In this document: positions 28,055 to 44,787 of the stretch, in pieces
How the letters are laid out: the number at the start of each line of letters is the position of its first letter
How positions within the stretch are numbered: position 1 is the first letter of the stretch
Source: Chloroflexota bacterium
GTDB lineage: Bacteria; Chloroflexota; Limnocylindria; QHBO01
Direction of reading: 5' to 3'
DNA length: 64,000 bases
Assembly (NCBI GenBank): GCA_003243965.1
Contig: QHBO01000007.1
Coordinates: forward strand, 14,843 to 78,842
Translations under genes and position numbers: made by a program
The notes under the pieces: generated by a model
Database searches by the model: none
Told to the model about the DNA's origin: nothing
The model's input: only the letters and a program-made list of their open reading frames with translations

Positions 28055-30058
28055 TCAGCCTGAGCCCTGCCCGAGCGCGAGCTGGTAGATCTGCACCGTC
28101 CCGTGCTCGTAGACGAGCCGGAAGCCGGCTGCGCCGCGAAACTTGGTCGGCGTGGGGCAGTCGGAGGGGAGTTCGCCGGCGATCAGGTACTGCGCGCGCA
28201 ATGAGCCGAGCAGCCGTGCGGCGAGCCCCGGATCGGCCCCGCAGTAGATGCGGTGCACCGTCCGCTCCCGCTCGTCCGGGGCGTACCCCAGGTTGGCGAC
28301 GTACGGCCCGTAGGTCGTGAGCCGGAGGCGGCCGGCGGCATCGGTCGGAGAGTTGAGCCACCCCGACGTGGCAAACACGCTCCTCGGGGGCGTGTTGCCA
28401 GCGATCCAGGTCGCGGCCCGGAGTTGATCGGGACTCAGGACGTTCATTCCGCCGCCCGCCGTCCAGGCCGCGACCAGCAGCGGCGAGGTAACGCTCAGCG
28501 CCAGCACCGCCGCAATGGCGGGTGCCGGCCAACGCGCGATCAGCCACGCGGCAATCAATGCGACCGCGATCCACATCGCCTGGAAGAGCTTGTTCATGTC
28601 GAAATCGATGACGCTGACCCGCACCACGTTCGGGAGCAGGAAGAGCACCAGCACCCAGGCGCCGAGGAAGGCGCGCCACGGATGGCGCGTGGCGACGAGC
28701 GCCAGCAGCGCGAGCACAAATGGCAGGCCAAGGTTGGTGAGGTAGAAGAACGCGACCGCGGCGGGGCCGTCACCGAACGGAGCCGACTCCCAGCCGGCGA
28801 CGAGCGTCAGCGCACCCGAGTGGCCGGACTGGAGTGCCGCCGGCAGGGCGAACGGCAGGGCGAGCAGGTACGGGATCGAGAACAGTCCCGCGTTGCGAAG
28901 CGCGTGACGGTCCGTCAGGCGGCCGCCGATGGCCACGTACAGGAGCGCAACCAGCAGGAATGTGGGGAAGAAGAAGAACTGGAACGGCGCCAGCAGCGCG
29001 CCGAGCAGGCCGGCCAGCCCGATGAGCCACGGCCGATCGTGCCAGCCGCGCCGGCGGCGGGCTGCGGTCGGCAGGCCGGCGATCAGCAGCAGGGTGGCGC
29101 CGACCAGGATCGGCAGGCCGGCCGTCGTGGCGCGATGGACCAGCAGCCCGGTGCCCATCACCGACGGGATCCGGAAGTAGGGCCATCCGGTCAGCCACTG
29201 GTTGTCATAGCTGTTGCGCATCACCAGGCCGATCGGGTCGCCGGCACCGCTCGCCACGTCGCCGATGAGCCGCACGTAACCCAGGCCACCGCCGATCACG
29301 ACCAGCACCACCGCCAGCCAGGCGACCTTCCGGCTGCGCAGCAGCTGCATCGCGAGCCCATGGACCAGGAGCGCAAGCGCGCCGGCGAACAGCGCGGAGT
29401 CGGCCACCATCGCCGGCACGGCGAATCCGTCGGCGGCGCTCGCCGCAATCGCCGCGTGGAAGTCGGCGAACCAGTGGTAGATCAGCGGGACGCCGGCGAA
29501 ATAGGGCACCTGCGGCGGGAAGTTGCCCGCGTTGAGCGACTGGGCGATCGACAGGTGCACCCCAAAATCGCTCCAGTTCGAGCCGCCCGACGAGACCCCC
29601 GCGGGCGTCACCCGCCAGACGCTTGCGCCGAGCACCAGTCCAACGAAGCCGGCCGTGGCCATCGCCAGCAACAGGGGGATGGCGTTGCGCGCAACGACGG
29701 CACGCAGCCGGAGAAGGAACGCGCGTCGAATGCCCGGCACGCGGCGCGTCCATGGGCGTGTCGCCAGGATCGGGATCGGCAGGACGAGCAGGCCGACGGC
29801 AAGGAACACGATCTCGCGCCGATAGCCGCCGGCGAGCAGCGCCAGCCAGTAGACGAGATGCGTGGAGATCGTCGCCGAGATGACCACCGCCAGGCCGATG
29901 CGTGCCGGCAGGCCGAGTCGTGGCCGGCAGATCGCCAGCAGGCACCAGCCCGGAACGAAGGCCAGGATCGGCCACACCACGGGCACGGCGAGCGGCGGGA
30001 CGAGCCACGCGGTGGTCAGCGCCGCGCCGAGGAGAACGGCGGCAAGCGCCCCTGCCAT
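28055..30058 (-). CDS. Multi-pass membrane protein, GT-C glycosyltransferase-like
   Basis: More than 12 TM segments; loop NWSDFGVH...NFPP..PYFAG..L.YHW; C-terminal soluble domain. Confidence 0.6.
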   Translation of the reverse strand: MAGALAAVLLGAALTTAWLVPPLAVPVVWPILAFVPGWCLLAICRPRLGLPARIGLAVVISATISTHLVYWLALLAGGYRREIVFLAVGLLVLPIPILATRPWTRRVPGIRRAFLLRLRAVVARNAIPLLLAMATAGFVGLVLGASVWRVTPAGVSSGGSNWSDFGVHLSIAQSLNAGNFPPQVPYFAGVPLIYHWFADFHAAIAASAADGFAVPAMVADSALFAGALALLVHGLAMQLLRSRKVAWLAVVLVVIGGGLGYVRLIGDVASGAGDPIGLVMRNSYDNQWLTGWPYFRIPSVMGTGLLVHRATTAGLPILVGATLLLIAGLPTAARRRRGWHDRPWLIGLAGLLGALLAPFQFFFFPTFLLVALLYVAIGGRLTDRHALRNAGLFSIPYLLALPFALPAALQSGHSGALTLVAGWESAPFGDGPAAVAFFYLTNLGLPFVLALLALVATRHPWRAFLGAWVLVLFLLPNVVRVSVIDFDMNKLFQAMWIAVALIAAWLIARWPAPAIAAVLALSVTSPLLVAAWTAGGGMNVLSPDQLRAATWIAGNTPPRSVFATSGWLNSPTDAAGRLRLTTYGPYVANLGYAPDERERTVHRIYCGADPGLAARLLGSLRAQYLIAGELPSDCPTPTKFRGAAGFRLVYEHGTVQIYQLALGQGSG

Positions 30059-40469: not shown

Positions 40470-41563
40470 GTGGCGCGCGGCCGGTCTTCCTGGCCGCCAC
40501 GGGACAAAACCGCGGAAAGACGACCGTCTCCCTCGGGCTGATTGCGGCAATTCTGGCAGGCAATCATCGGCTCGGCTTCGTGAAGCCGGTCGGGCAGCGG
40601 TACCTGGTCATCGACGGCATGCGCGCCGACGAGGACGCGGTGCTGGTCAAGGAGGTCTTCGGGCTGGCCGACCCGCTGGACGACATGAGCCCGGTCACCC
40701 TTCCGCGCCACTTCACCACCGATTGGATCATGGGACGGATCAGCAGCGACCTGGACCGGAACCTGAGCGATGCCTACCATCGCGTGGCGGCCGACAAAGA
40801 GATCGTGGTCATCGAGGGGACGGGACACGCAGGCGTCGGGGCGGTGGTCGGCCTCTCGAATGCGCGCGTGGCGGGCCTGCTCGGTGCGCGGACGATCATC
40901 GTCTCCGAGGGCGGAGTGGGGCGTCCGATCGATGAGATCGTCCTCAACCTGGCGCTCTTCGCGCAGCACGGCGTCGATGTCATCGGGGCCATCGTCAACA
41001 AGGTCGACGTCGTCGGTCGGCCGGATCTGGAGGAGGTGCTGCGACGCGGTCTGGCGCGGCACGGCGTTGCGCTGCTGGGCTGCATCCCGTTCAGCGAGCT
41101 GCTCGCCAATCCGTCGCTCGAGCTGATCGTCACCCACCTCGACGGCGAGCTGCTCGCCGGCACCGCGACCCCGGGGCACGTGATCGGCCAGGTGGCGATC
41201 GGTGCCATGCAGGCCGGCCATGCGATGGGGCTGCTGCGGGACCGCACGCTGCTGATCACCCCCGGCGACCGCGAGGACCTGCTGCTTGCCGCCGTCGCCG
41301 CCAACCGTGCGGCTGAGCACGGACGGCCCAAGGTGAGCGGCCTGGTTCTGACCGGTGGCTTCCGACCGGCCGCGCCCGTTCTCGCCGAGCTGCGCTCGAG
41401 CGGCCTGTTCACCTACCTGGTCGGCGGCGAGACGTACGGCACCGCCCAGGCGGTGGATGCGATCCTGGTCAAGACGCACCCCACCGATACCGAGAAGATC
41501 GAGACCATCATCTCGCTGGTCGGCAGTGCGCTGGACGTCGACGGCCTGCTGGCCCGGCTCTAG
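40466..41563 (+). CDS. BioD-like/AAA_26 plus DRTGG protein (Pta N-terminal region without catalytic domain)
   Basis: NRGKTT, GFVKPVG, IEGTG, ITPGDRED, LVLTGG. Confidence 0.85.
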   Translation: MSGARPVFLAATGQNRGKTTVSLGLIAAILAGNHRLGFVKPVGQRYLVIDGMRADEDAVLVKEVFGLADPLDDMSPVTLPRHFTTDWIMGRISSDLDRNLSDAYHRVAADKEIVVIEGTGHAGVGAVVGLSNARVAGLLGARTIIVSEGGVGRPIDEIVLNLALFAQHGVDVIGAIVNKVDVVGRPDLEEVLRRGLARHGVALLGCIPFSELLANPSLELIVTHLDGELLAGTATPGHVIGQVAIGAMQAGHAMGLLRDRTLLITPGDREDLLLAAVAANRAAEHGRPKVSGLVLTGGFRPAAPVLAELRSSGLFTYLVGGETYGTAQAVDAILVKTHPTDTEKIETIISLVGSALDVDGLLARL

Positions 41564-41766: not shown

Positions 41767-42621
41767 TTAGCCGCCGGCGGCGTCCAGCGGGAGGTTGTCG
41801 GTGAGGCGGGTACGCCCGATCCAGACCGCCACCATCGCCAGGGCCGGGCCGGTGACGCGCTGAAGCTCGACCAGCGTGAAGGCGTCCGCGACGCTCACGT
41901 AGTCGAGCCGGGCCATCGGCTCCGCGGTGATGATGTCGCTCATCCTGGCGCGGAGCACCTCTGCCGACCGCTCACCTCGCTCGAAGGCATGCTCGGCGGC
42001 AGCGAGCGCGGCGTAGATGCAGGTCGCGGCATGGCGCTGCTCGATGCTGAGGCTGGCGTTCGCCGAGGAGACCGCGAGGCCGTCCGACTCGCGTACGGTG
42101 GCGCAGACCACCAGCTCCACGTTCATGAACAGGTCGCGAAGCATGCGGCGCAGGATGACGTTCTGCTGCGCGTGGCGTTGCCCGAGGTACATGCGCGCCG
42201 GGCCGACCAGGTGAAGCAGCTTGACCATGACCGTGGTCAACCCGTCGAGGTGGCCCGGGCGGGAGGCGCCCTCGAGCTGGCGGGTGAGCCCCTCGACCGT
42301 GACACGCGTCAGGTCGTCGGGCGGGTAGAGGGTGATGACCTGCGGGAGGAATGCAATGTCCGCTCCCGCGCTGTCGAGCAGTGCCAGATCACGTCCCTCG
42401 TCGCGGGGCCCCGCCTGCGCCTCGTCGAGCGTTCGGAAGTCGCCAGGGCTCACGAAGCTGCTGACCACGACGGCGCCGTTCTCCGCCTTCGCGCGGCGGA
42501 CAAGCGAGAGCTGCCCATCGTGGAGCGCGCCCATGGTCGGCACGTATCCCACCGAGGCGCCTCCCACGCGGTGGGCAAGAACCGCCGCACGGAGGTCGGG
42601 CACGCTCCGGACGACCTGCAC
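41767..42621 (-). CDS. PanC (pantoate-beta-alanine ligase)-like protein with degenerate active site
   Basis: VPTMGALHDGQ, SSFVSPGDF, LEGASRPGHL, YLGQRHAQQ, DGLAVSSAN, TRLTDN. Confidence 0.85.
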   Translation of the reverse strand: MQVVRSVPDLRAAVLAHRVGGASVGYVPTMGALHDGQLSLVRRAKAENGAVVVSSFVSPGDFRTLDEAQAGPRDEGRDLALLDSAGADIAFLPQVITLYPPDDLTRVTVEGLTRQLEGASRPGHLDGLTTVMVKLLHLVGPARMYLGQRHAQQNVILRRMLRDLFMNVELVVCATVRESDGLAVSSANASLSIEQRHAATCIYAALAAAEHAFERGERSAEVLRARMSDIITAEPMARLDYVSVADAFTLVELQRVTGPALAMVAVWIGRTRLTDNLPLDAAGG

Positions 42622-42623
42622 CG

Positions 42624-43895
42624 TCAGGAGCGCCTCGATGCGCCACGCGGCGCACTCGGGTCGGTCGAGGATTCCTGCCCGCGATAGCGGTCGGCGATCA
42701 GGTCCCACAGGCGCTCGGCGACCTGCCGCTTGGGGAGCATCGGCCAGTCCGTCAGGTTTCCCTCCCGCCCGAACACGGCCACCTTGTTCTCGTCCGAACC
42801 GATGGCGTCGAACGGGCCCCCGATCTCGTTGGCGACGATCAGGTCGAGCCCCTTGTCGCGCAGTTTGCCGGTGGCGTTCGCCTCCATGTCGTTCGTTTCA
42901 GCCGCGAAACCGATGAGGAACGGGCGAACCTCGGCTGGCATCTCGGCCACCTCGGCGATGATGTCCGGATTGGGCACCAGATCGATGCGGAGCGGGGCAC
43001 CGTCACGCTTGATCTTGCGCTGGCTGGCCCGCGACGGAGCGAAGTCCGACACCGCGGCGGCCATGACCACGATATCGGCGCCCGGCGCGCTGCGCAGCAC
43101 TGCCTCACGCATCGAGGCGGCTGTCGGTGCCTCGACGACGGTCACGCCACCTGGTGAGGCGACTGACAGTGCGCCGGCGATCAGCGTCACGCTGGCGCCG
43201 CGATCCCGGGCCGCCTCCGCGATCGCGACGCCCATCTTCCCGCTGCTGCGGTTGCCGATGAAGCGCACCGGGTCGAGCGGCTCGCGTGTGCCGCCTGCCG
43301 AGACGACGATGCGCAGCCCCTCCAGATCACCGGAGCGCGCGAAGAGGCGCTCCATCGCCTCGACGATGGTGGCGGGCTCCGCCAGCCGTCCCGCTCCGGT
43401 CAGGCCGCTCGCCAGCGCGCCGAATCCCGGCTCGATCACCAGATAGCCGAAGCCGCGCAGCGTCTCGACGTTGCGCTCCGTGGCTGGATGGGTCCACATG
43501 CCCGCATCCATGGCAGGAGCGACCACCACGCGCCCGCGGCCGGCGCAGGCGATGGCGGTCACCGGGTTCCGCACCAGCCCGACGGCCATCTCCGCGATGG
43601 CGTTGGCGGTTGCCGGCGCCACGACCACCGCGTCGGCTGCCTCTGCGAGCTCCACGTGAGCGATTCGGCGATCCGCGTCGAGCGCCATCAGGTCGGTGAC
43701 CGCCGGTCTCTGTGTCAGCGACTCGAACGTCAGCGCCGTCACGAAGCGGGTCGCTGCACGGGTCATCGCCACATCGACCGTCGCCCCCGACTGCTGCAGC
43801 AGCCGAACCAGGGTGACCGCCTTGTAGGTTGCGATGCTGCCGGTGACGCCGACCACGATCCGCCGCCCGGCGAGCCGCGGCCTGTCGTCGTTCAT
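42624..43895 (-). CDS. coaBC: Bifunctional phosphopantothenoylcysteine decarboxylase/ligase
   Basis: GVTGSIATYK, APATAN, APAMD, DPVRFIGNRSSGKMG, AAVSDF, GFAAET. Confidence 0.95.
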   Translation of the reverse strand: MNDDRPRLAGRRIVVGVTGSIATYKAVTLVRLLQQSGATVDVAMTRAATRFVTALTFESLTQRPAVTDLMALDADRRIAHVELAEAADAVVVAPATANAIAEMAVGLVRNPVTAIACAGRGRVVVAPAMDAGMWTHPATERNVETLRGFGYLVIEPGFGALASGLTGAGRLAEPATIVEAMERLFARSGDLEGLRIVVSAGGTREPLDPVRFIGNRSSGKMGVAIAEAARDRGASVTLIAGALSVASPGGVTVVEAPTAASMREAVLRSAPGADIVVMAAAVSDFAPSRASQRKIKRDGAPLRIDLVPNPDIIAEVAEMPAEVRPFLIGFAAETNDMEANATGKLRDKGLDLIVANEIGGPFDAIGSDENKVAVFGREGNLTDWPMLPKRQVAERLWDLIADRYRGQESSTDPSAPRGASRRS

Positions 43896-44725
43896 CGGGC
43901 CACACGCTCCGCAGCGGGCGTTCTCGCCACGGCGGCGTGCGCCGCCTGCCAGGCGTAGCGGATCCCGCGCAGGGTGAGATCAGGCTCGATGGCGTCGATA
44001 CCGGGAACGTCGCGCAGCCATGGTTCGTGGGTGTAGCCGCCGGTGGCAATCACGGTCACCCGGCTGGCCGGCGGAGATGCCTCGAGCAGCTCCGTGCGGA
44101 GCGCCGCCAACAGCCCCGACACCAGACCGATGTAGCCGTTGACGGTCCCGCTCTGCATGGCCTGCACGGTGGTTGTCCCGATGGCTCGCGGCGGTCGGCG
44201 GAGCTCGATGCGCGGCAGCTTGGCCGCGCGGCCGGCGAGTGCCTCGAGCGAGAGCCCCAGCCCGGGCGCGATCGCCCCACCGAGGTACGCCCCATCCGCG
44301 CTCACCACGTCGAAGTTCGTGCTGGTGCCGAGGTCGACCACGATCGCGGGCAGCGGAAACTCGCGGCAGACCGCCAGCGCGTTCGCGAGCCGATCGGCTC
44401 CGGCCTCCGCGGGGCGGTCGATGCGGATCTCGAGCGCGCCGCGCACTGTGCTCGCGTCGAGGAGGAACGGGTCCAGCGCCAGGCGGTCGTGGACCATCCG
44501 CTCGAAGGTGGCGGCGAGCGGCGGCACCACGCTGGCGATCGCCACTGCCTCGATGCGTTCAAGTCGTTCGCCGTCGAGCGCCAACAGGCCGGCAACCTGG
44601 GCGGCCAGCTCGTCAGTGGTCGCCACCGGGCGGGCGGTGGCACGCCAAGAGGCGACCAGCGATTCTCCGTCGAAGAGACCGAGCGTCAGGTTCGTGTTGC
44701 CGATGTCGGCCGCCAGCAGCTTCAT
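43892..44725 (-). CDS. coaX: Type III pantothenate kinase
   Basis: DIGNTN, GADR, VDLGT, GGAIAPG, TGG. Confidence 0.95.
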   Translation of the reverse strand: MKLLAADIGNTNLTLGLFDGESLVASWRATARPVATTDELAAQVAGLLALDGERLERIEAVAIASVVPPLAATFERMVHDRLALDPFLLDASTVRGALEIRIDRPAEAGADRLANALAVCREFPLPAIVVDLGTSTNFDVVSADGAYLGGAIAPGLGLSLEALAGRAAKLPRIELRRPPRAIGTTTVQAMQSGTVNGYIGLVSGLLAALRTELLEASPPASRVTVIATGGYTHEPWLRDVPGIDAIEPDLTLRGIRYAWQAAHAAVARTPAAERVAR

Positions 44726-44787
44726 CGGCGGCAATCCTACCAGCCGGTCCCCGACCGGCCGGTGGTCCGGTGCTAGACTCGCCGGCG

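Follow-up and report, generated by a model that had tools for sequence, protein, structure and literature searches.

Why would a bacterium that encodes a canonical pantothenate synthetase (PanC) keep, within an operon for coenzyme A (CoA) biosynthesis, another full-length PanC homologue whose active site has been rewritten? The question is raised by a stretch of 64,000 nucleotides, here called the window, from a Chloroflexota bacterium (GTDB lineage Limnocylindria, QHBO01; assembly GCA_003243965.1, contig QHBO01000007.1, positions 14,843 to 78,842). The gene concerned lies at 41767-42621 on the minus strand, behind coaX and coaBC, and encodes a PanC-derived paralogue of 284 amino acids with an altered active site, which scores above the cut-offs of both PanC profiles (PF02569, 271 bits, cut-off 20.7; TIGR00018, 250.6 bits, cut-off 212.75). 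A sequence-only reading of this DNA had proposed, in essence, a complete PanC that has ceased to work as a pantothenate synthetase and yet is kept by selection, and the comparative evidence presented here strongly supports that proposal. We suggest that the paralogue is probably a selected pseudoenzyme, which, like HisZ, would serve pantothenate and CoA metabolism by binding a ligand or another protein and not by ligation. It is not a pseudogene in decay, and it very probably does not act as a pantothenate synthetase.

Residues are numbered as in Mycobacterium tuberculosis PanC, according to motif spacing, the offset of the alignment to structure 1MOP and the residue list in PMC5772511. In this numbering, 8 of the 15 positions compared in the active site are changed in the paralogue (H47Q, N69S, Q72D, F136L, F157L, K160R, D161H, and R198A). 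All five motifs that the sequence-only reading had called altered could be read from the DNA of the minus strand, and they align opposite HEGH, FVNPTQF, GHF, FGQKDAQQ, and SSRN of solved PanC chains. They are HDGQ in place of HxGH (42511-42522; H47 to Q), FVSPGDF in place of FVNPxQF (42436-42456; N69 to S and Q72 to D), GHL in place of GHF (42247-42255; F136 to L), LGQRHAQQ in place of FGxKDxQQ (42163-42186; F157 to L, K160 to R, and D161 to H, with Q164 kept), and SSAN in place of SSRN (42058-42069; R198 to A). The protein thus falls within the PanC profiles and lacks the catalytic signature: the histidine pair H44 and H47 of HxGH is broken (HDGQ), the NPxQ motif carries S69 and D72 although Q164 is retained, and the ATP site (K160, D161, and S196-S197-R198) carries R160, H161, and A198 although S196 and S197 are retained.

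The fold itself is intact. An AlphaFold2 model of the paralogue was confident except in the gate-loop region at residues 60-73 (predicted local distance difference test 91.4, predicted template modelling score 0.89), and it superimposed on PanC structures with template modelling (TM) scores of 0.93-0.94, the best Foldseek match being Thermotoga maritima PanC (2EJC; TM 0.93, E 1e-34). Compared with the canonical enzyme (EC 6.3.2.1; 2EJC and 1MOP), the paralogue has the same two-domain fold and length, is 43% identical to 2EJC, and keeps P38, M40, H44, G46, G158, Q164, S196, S197, and N199. In addition to the eight substitutions above, it differs from canonical PanC by V139L, V143M, and the loss of YP from YPRD, and it coexists with a canonical PanC and is not located beside panB. 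According to PMC5772511, citing Zheng et al., alanine substitution of H44, H47, N69, Q72, or K160 lowers activity 1000-fold, and the ATP phosphates are bound through salt bridges with K160 and R198. Judged from its residues, the paralogue has very probably lost pantothenate synthetase activity.

A canonical panC, which the sequence-only reading had recommended looking for, is present elsewhere in the same genome (G000; 2.2 Mb in 48 contigs, 93% complete). A profile search of the contigs yielded a second PF02569 match (294 bits) on contig C10, a protein of 267 amino acids with the canonical motifs HPGH, FINPAQF, DHF, FGQKDAQQ, and SSRN. It belongs to a DUF2520-panC-panB module on the minus strand (L001:572-2948), in which panB was identified by PF02548 (356 bits). 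DUF2520 proteins have been linked to ketopantoate reduction (PanG). The arrangement is typical for the family, as panB adjoins panC in 21 of its 23 canonical loci and a DUF2520 gene is found in all 23. The absence of panB and panD beside the paralogue, noted already in the sequence-only reading, was borne out: neither gene adjoins it, panB sits on the other contig with the canonical panC, and a search for aspartate 1-decarboxylase (PanD, PF02261) gave no match in the assembly, which is 93% complete. The later steps of the pathway are represented by coaD (TIGR01510, 186.7 bits) and coaE; given the presence of coaD, we rejected the paralogue as a stand-in for a missing phosphopantetheine adenylyltransferase (CoaD). 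With the canonical copy as query, only Limnocylindria-type proteins occurred among the best 120 matches. The canonical module may have been acquired by transfer or may be an old paralogue.

The altered copy is a family-wide feature. All 24 family relatives had a PanC match, and 22 of them had two or more. In a larger sample of 79 family genomes with at least 85% completeness, spanning 18 genera, 78 contain a full-length copy that shares 61% or more identity with the window protein (in the remaining one, G020, there is just a fragment where a contig ends), and 77 contain at least two PanC homologues. The paralogue is located directly 3' of coaBC in all 21 loci with enough flanking sequence, and one more locus begins inside the end of coaBC. 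From the family we extracted 23 coa-linked copies, 22 of which are altered, and compared 29 pocket positions among these 22 copies, 23 panB-linked canonical copies, and 14 single-copy PanCs (from genome G004 of the same family and from families f2-f4). R198 is absent from all 22 altered copies (A in 19, Q in 2, H in 1) and present in 23/23 canonical and 14/14 single-copy sequences. F136 is replaced by L or M in all 22 altered copies and is F in all 23 canonical ones; F157 is likewise replaced in 22/22, and H47 is replaced by Q or S in 21/22. Position 161 is H in 16 altered copies, the other 6 keeping D161, while Q164 is kept in 18 and replaced by R in 4. N69 is kept in 12 of the 22, and Q72 in only 2, with nine different residues occurring at position 72. 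On the other hand, P38, G41, H44, G46, L50, G158, and N199 are kept in 22/22 and T186 and S196 in 21/22. The 23 canonical and 14 single-copy sequences are 100% canonical at H44, H47, N69, Q72, H135, F136, F157, K160, D161, Q164, S196, S197, and R198.

Searches of protein databases gave the same picture. Among 8000 candidates scored, 2695 proteins matched at E <= 1e-20, and the nearest 120 clusters (74-100% identity) carry Q47, L136, H161, and A198 in 120/120, with a mostly acidic position 72 (E in 81, D in 25). Of the best 150 representatives of 50%-identity clusters, 5 deviate at H47, D161, or R198, and all 5 belong to the same Limnocylindria family; the remaining 145 have H47, D161, and R198 wherever aligned, and N69 and Q72 are likewise invariant in them. 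H47 is present in 144 of the 146 representatives aligned at that position, the exceptions (P0121 and P0132) again being members of this family. It is confirmed that the deviation from the PanC signature is far beyond chance, and in the data searched the paralogue is confined to one Limnocylindria family.

How the altered gene came to lie beside coaBC could be traced by synteny and phylogeny. Genome G004, which represents its own genus within the family (92% complete), has a single PanC match with canonical residues throughout. The order at its locus is coaX-coaBC-panB-panC, and the genes further downstream are those also seen in the window. In families f3 and f4, each genome has a single PanC, which is canonical in its residues and encoded in the order coaBC-panB-panC. 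In a quick maximum-likelihood tree of 59 PanCs, rooted on one long branch, the 23 coa-linked family copies formed one clade with G004 basal (Shimodaira-Hasegawa-like approximate likelihood ratio test, SH-aLRT, support 100); within it the 22 altered copies formed a clade (99), and the panB-linked copies formed a separate clade (99). Synteny and tree together indicate that the altered gene is the original operon PanC and not a newcomer, and that it probably descends in place from an ancestral coaX-coaBC-panB-panC operon. Under this scenario, the operon of ancestral Candidatus Limnocylindria would have had that four-gene order, and in one family a separate DUF2520-panC-panB module would have taken over pantothenate supply. 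The panB gene at the coa locus would then have been deleted while panC stayed in place, lost residues for forming pantoyl-adenylate, and was kept intact and translationally coupled to coaBC. The operon context is accordingly weaker evidence than the sequence-only reading had assumed for its proposed sensor or regulator of CoaX or CoaBC, because the position was inherited, and such a role is hypothetical.

The retained gene is constrained. The sequence-only reading had asked if orthologues share the substitutions; they are family-wide and not strain-specific, and the ratio of nonsynonymous to synonymous substitution rates (dN/dS, Nei-Gojobori estimates) is 0.07-0.13, not near 1, contrary to the refuting condition that this reading had set. 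Between the window genome and the unpublished genome G001, dN/dS was 0.068 for the altered and 0.15 for the canonical copy. Medians were 0.129 and 0.165, respectively, in genus g23 (10 pairs each) and 0.127 and 0.201 in genus g13 (21 pairs each), with dN lower for the altered than for the canonical copy in both genera; three single-copy PanCs of family f3 gave 0.126-0.163. No frameshifts or internal stops were found in the 22 altered copies or in the 120 nearest clusters, the two internal stops flagged in altered copies falling at the normal gene end. Even the g13 copy, which is 270 amino acids long, reads KDAQR and SAAN, and has lost M40, the whole FVNPxQF motif, and about 14 residues, has a dN/dS of 0.127. 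The altered copy is under purifying selection stronger than that on the canonical enzyme.

A separate feature was seen in the comparison with unpublished G001, which represents the other of two species of the genus: nucleotide identity falls from 95-99% in the flanks to 81-89% at about 41900-42800 of the window (L003 about 1640-2540 versus L004). The tract extends from the 3' end of coaBC through the 5' two-thirds of the paralogue. Its dS is 0.48, whereas coaBC as a whole has 0.16 and the canonical panC 0.15. The tract resembles one recombined in from a more distantly related genome, and purifying selection still acts on it.

The sites under constraint have shifted. Mean conservation at the 29 pocket positions was 0.853 in the altered copies and 0.982 in the canonical copies from mostly the same genomes, whereas at all other positions it was 0.795 and 0.723, respectively, so that the margin by which the pocket is better conserved than the remaining positions shrank from +0.26 to +0.06. 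Constraint was lost mainly at residues 51-70, which hold the NPxQ motif and the gate loop and where YP of YPRD is variable, and gained mainly at residues 11-20, 41-50, 111-120, 191-200, and 211-240, including the charged residues E194, E217, E221, E234, and R238 of the C-terminal helices (numbering of the 284-residue protein). Ten positions are conserved in both groups of copies with different residues, and seven of them line the pocket. The residues kept in all or all but one of the altered copies belong to the adenine-nucleotide side of the pocket, according to the contact list in PMC5772511.

These observations carry our preferred reading, a pseudoenzyme maintained by selection: the fold is kept, catalytic residues are lost, and purifying selection acts on the gene beside an active enzyme. 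Such a protein would have retained the PanC fold and most of the adenine-nucleotide half-pocket and given up the pantoate/beta-alanine and pyrophosphate subsites, while helices outside the pocket gained constraint. Since the pantoate/beta-alanine subsite and the pyrophosphate clamp appear dispensable and the nucleotide subsite and new surfaces appear needed, a binding or regulatory pseudoenzyme is favoured over a ligase of new specificity. The data show paralogy, synteny, the loss of catalytic residues, selection, and distribution directly; that activity has been lost, that a nucleotide is bound, and that the role is regulatory or scaffolding are inferences from them.

Several points weigh against this reading. 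H44, K/R160, Q164 (in 18/22), S196, and N199 are kept, and a weak or altered adenylating activity is possible. The invariant Q47, H161, and A198 together with the acidic position 72 in the core clade would also fit a newly specified active site, and several invariant nucleotide-site residues are glycine or proline, which may be kept for folding alone. The dS values are high (0.3-0.9) and the dN/dS ratios approximate; moreover, the value of 0.068 rests on unpublished G001, and among the sequences compared, four altered ones (of 22) and four canonical ones (of 23) are from unpublished genomes (G001, G005, G016, and G024). In the tree, the coa-linked clade joins six of seven f3 sequences with an SH-aLRT of only 84. 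Finally, the correlation of canonical residues with single-copy status has one anchor within the family, G004 alone, which is 92% complete.

Among the other explanations, a neofunctionalised enzyme survives best and seems a possible but not a likely account. Its remodelled pocket (Q47, L136, L139, M143, L157, H161, and A198) would accept another substrate or nucleotide in a new pantothenate/CoA or salvage reaction, which may proceed without pyrophosphate release. The seven pocket-lining positions among the ten with group-specific residues are what such an enzyme would show, as are the fixation of Q47, H161, and A198 in 120/120 core-clade clusters, the strong purifying selection, and the retention of H44, K/R160, S196, and N199. 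Nevertheless, the early-branching genera differ widely in the pocket (nine residues at Q72, D161 in 6/22, Q164R in 4/22), and genus g13 does without FVNPxQF, M40, and about 14 residues at a dN/dS of 0.127. Furthermore, both residues for the pyrophosphate leaving group (H47 and R198) are gone, and the excess conservation of the pocket has dropped to +0.06. The re-specified ligase that the sequence-only reading had offered as one option is disfavoured on the same grounds, as N69 and Q72 are hypervariable and not fixed on a new residue, and H47 and R198, which clamp pyrophosphate, are lost. An archaeal-type 4-phosphopantoate ligase was likewise judged unlikely, by inference from the acidic position 72, the lack of a newly fixed phosphate-binding residue, and the intact coaX.

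A more specific form of the pseudoenzyme reading, to which we give rather little credence, makes the paralogue a nucleotide- or CoA-sensing regulatory subunit of CoA biosynthesis that modulates CoaX, CoaBC, or the canonical PanC. The retained adenosine pocket would read CoA, dephospho-CoA, or adenylate charge, D161H would remove the ribose-binding acid, and R198A and H47Q would remove the triphosphate clamp. To our knowledge, type III pantothenate kinases are not inhibited by CoA; if the view is true, such a sensor would give the feedback control said to be missing from these kinases.

That the paralogue is a second pantothenate synthetase isozyme with unusual residues is improbable. It passes the NCBIfam equivalog cut-off for panC, has an intact fold, lies in a CoA operon, and is called pantoate--beta-alanine ligase in every source that names it. 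However, it does without H47, N69, Q72, and R198, which are invariant in the other 145 representatives wherever aligned, and alanine at H47, N69, or Q72 is among the substitutions reported in PMC5772511 to lower activity 1000-fold. In addition, a canonical panC is present in 77 of the 79 family genomes, and the one family genome with a single PanC (G004) keeps all canonical residues at the same locus. A redundant duplicate decaying to a pseudogene, for which the lost catalytic residues and the heterogeneous substitutions of the earliest-branching copies (as under relaxed selection after redundancy) might speak, can be dismissed, since the reading frame is open in all 22 copies and 120 clusters, most of them 284 amino acids long, dN/dS is 0.07-0.13 with dN below that of the active enzyme, and the gene is retained in 78/79 genomes of 18 genera, even though the adjoining panB was cleanly deleted.

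Within the pseudoenzyme reading, HisZ, whose ancestry lies in histidyl-tRNA synthetase, appears to be the nearest analogue in kind. It is a catalytically inactive paralogue that regulates the ATP phosphoribosyltransferase HisGS, according to PMC9734150. Both proteins have a synthetase-like fold, are under selection, and are encoded with pathway genes of the ancestral ligand, and both have lost the ancestral catalysis, presumably so in the case of the paralogue. In contrast, the partner, ligand, and allosteric mechanism of HisZ have been demonstrated, whereas those of the paralogue are hypothetical, and HisZ is widespread in bacteria, whereas the paralogue is restricted to the one family. A second parallel is MtCoaX of M. 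tuberculosis, a homologue of type III pantothenate kinases whose gene accompanies panD and panC; a review (PMC7770189) reports it as expressed and non-functional. It too is an apparently inactive CoA-pathway homologue in a pan/coa operon with the active enzyme encoded elsewhere, but it belongs to the PanK-III family and not to PanC.

Although PanC has been studied intensively, also as a target for drugs, we found no naturally selected, catalytically disabled PanC, no description of a PanC pseudoenzyme, and no report on Limnocylindria pantothenate genes in the literature searched, which excluded most subscription journals and in which PanC queries were mostly swamped by pancreas papers; this agrees with the sequence-only reading, which knew of no such protein. 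The paralogue would enlarge the short list of pseudoenzymes from biosynthetic pathways by a bacterial case, and it may reveal a hitherto unrecognised point of control over CoA synthesis where the pantothenate kinase is of type III. It also offers a natural experiment at one locus, with canonical residues where the gene is the sole PanC and replaced residues wherever a second pantothenate module exists; from this contrast the loss of function can be dated, and the features that selection went on to preserve can be seen.

Divergent PanC paralogues are recurrent in Chloroflexota, some of them in cultured organisms. Of 301 Chloroflexota genomes sampled, 258 had a PF02569 match, and at least two matches were found in all 16 sampled genomes of the Limnocylindria family and in 18 others. 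Thermogemmatispora (G196, L111:1468-2364 on the minus strand; G331, L112) has a second PanC copy scoring 192-198 bits, compared with 343-348 for the first. HxGH is kept in this paralogue, with M40Q, H135R, G158L, K160N/S, D161E, Q164T, and SESY or SENY in place of SSRN. Ten to twelve of 16 pocket positions are replaced in proteins of the Thermogemmatispora lineage (P0391-P0400), and 65 of the best 120 relatives deviate at two or more of the 16; relatives also occur in Ktedonobacteraceae. The Thermogemmatispora and Ktedonobacteria paralogues resemble that of the window in being a second PanC beside a canonical one with many active-site positions replaced, but the Thermogemmatispora paralogues differ in having an independent origin, another residue pattern, and no coa operon context. 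The Thermogemmatispora gene adjoins a PlsY-like gene, labelled by eye and not by profile search, and its products are named 4-phosphopantoate--beta-alanine ligase or pantothenate synthetase in the source records. No description of the Thermogemmatispora/Ktedonobacteria lineage was found in the literature searched. Separately, genome G347 of family f25 has a second PanC (L110) with partial changes only (D161N, Q164H, and RPEHVQG, with SSRN kept), which could represent a transitional stage or an enzyme with changed specificity.

Equivalog models and source annotations name such proteins pantoate--beta-alanine ligase, including hundreds of metagenomic proteins and the Thermogemmatispora lineage. 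Metabolic reconstructions can therefore mislead where only the presumably inactive copy has been binned.

The gene order coaX-coaBC-PanC was as given in the sequence-only reading, except that its end at 44725 corresponds to an internal ATG of coaX. The gene for the type III pantothenate kinase CoaX spans 43892-44734 on the minus strand (280 amino acids from a TTG at 44734, with the ATG at 44725 as an alternative start; PF03309, 215 bits; NF009855, 247.5 bits, cut-off 233). It is followed at 42624-43895, also on the minus strand, by coaBC, encoding the bifunctional phosphopantothenoylcysteine synthetase/decarboxylase (423 amino acids; TIGR00521, 405 bits, cut-off 219.7; PF04127 and PF02441). 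The three genes are tightly packed: the coaBC ATG overlaps the coaX stop (ATGA), and the GTG start of the paralogue lies 2 nucleotides past the coaBC stop. The start at 42621 is matched in position and length in 16 relatives, and a length of 284 amino acids is found in most of the 120 nearest database proteins. A longer open reading frame for the paralogue, up to 42708, was rejected, since it overlaps coaBC and the starts of relatives support 42621; a fusion of the paralogue with coaBC was also rejected, as the long open frames lie in a frame other than that of coaBC. A complex prediction for CoaX, CoaBC, and the paralogue from our own alignments scored 0.00 (mark 0.32) and is usable neither for nor against interaction. 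A search for sequencing runs of RNA that contain the locus listed none; the 4 rows listed (from 2 studies) are of DNA and have no bearing on expression.

Elsewhere in the window, a search with Rfam at gathering thresholds gave three transfer RNAs only and no riboswitch near the coa operon. Convergent with the operon, a gene at 40487-41563 on the plus strand encodes a protein of 358 amino acids with AAA_26 and DRTGG domains only, which we take to resemble the N-terminal part of long phosphotransacetylases (Pta) without the catalytic domain. A strong AT skew at 28-30 kb (0.28) coincides with an open reading frame for a polytopic membrane protein of 667 amino acids (28055-30058, minus strand), and it seems to reflect only the base composition of the coding strand.

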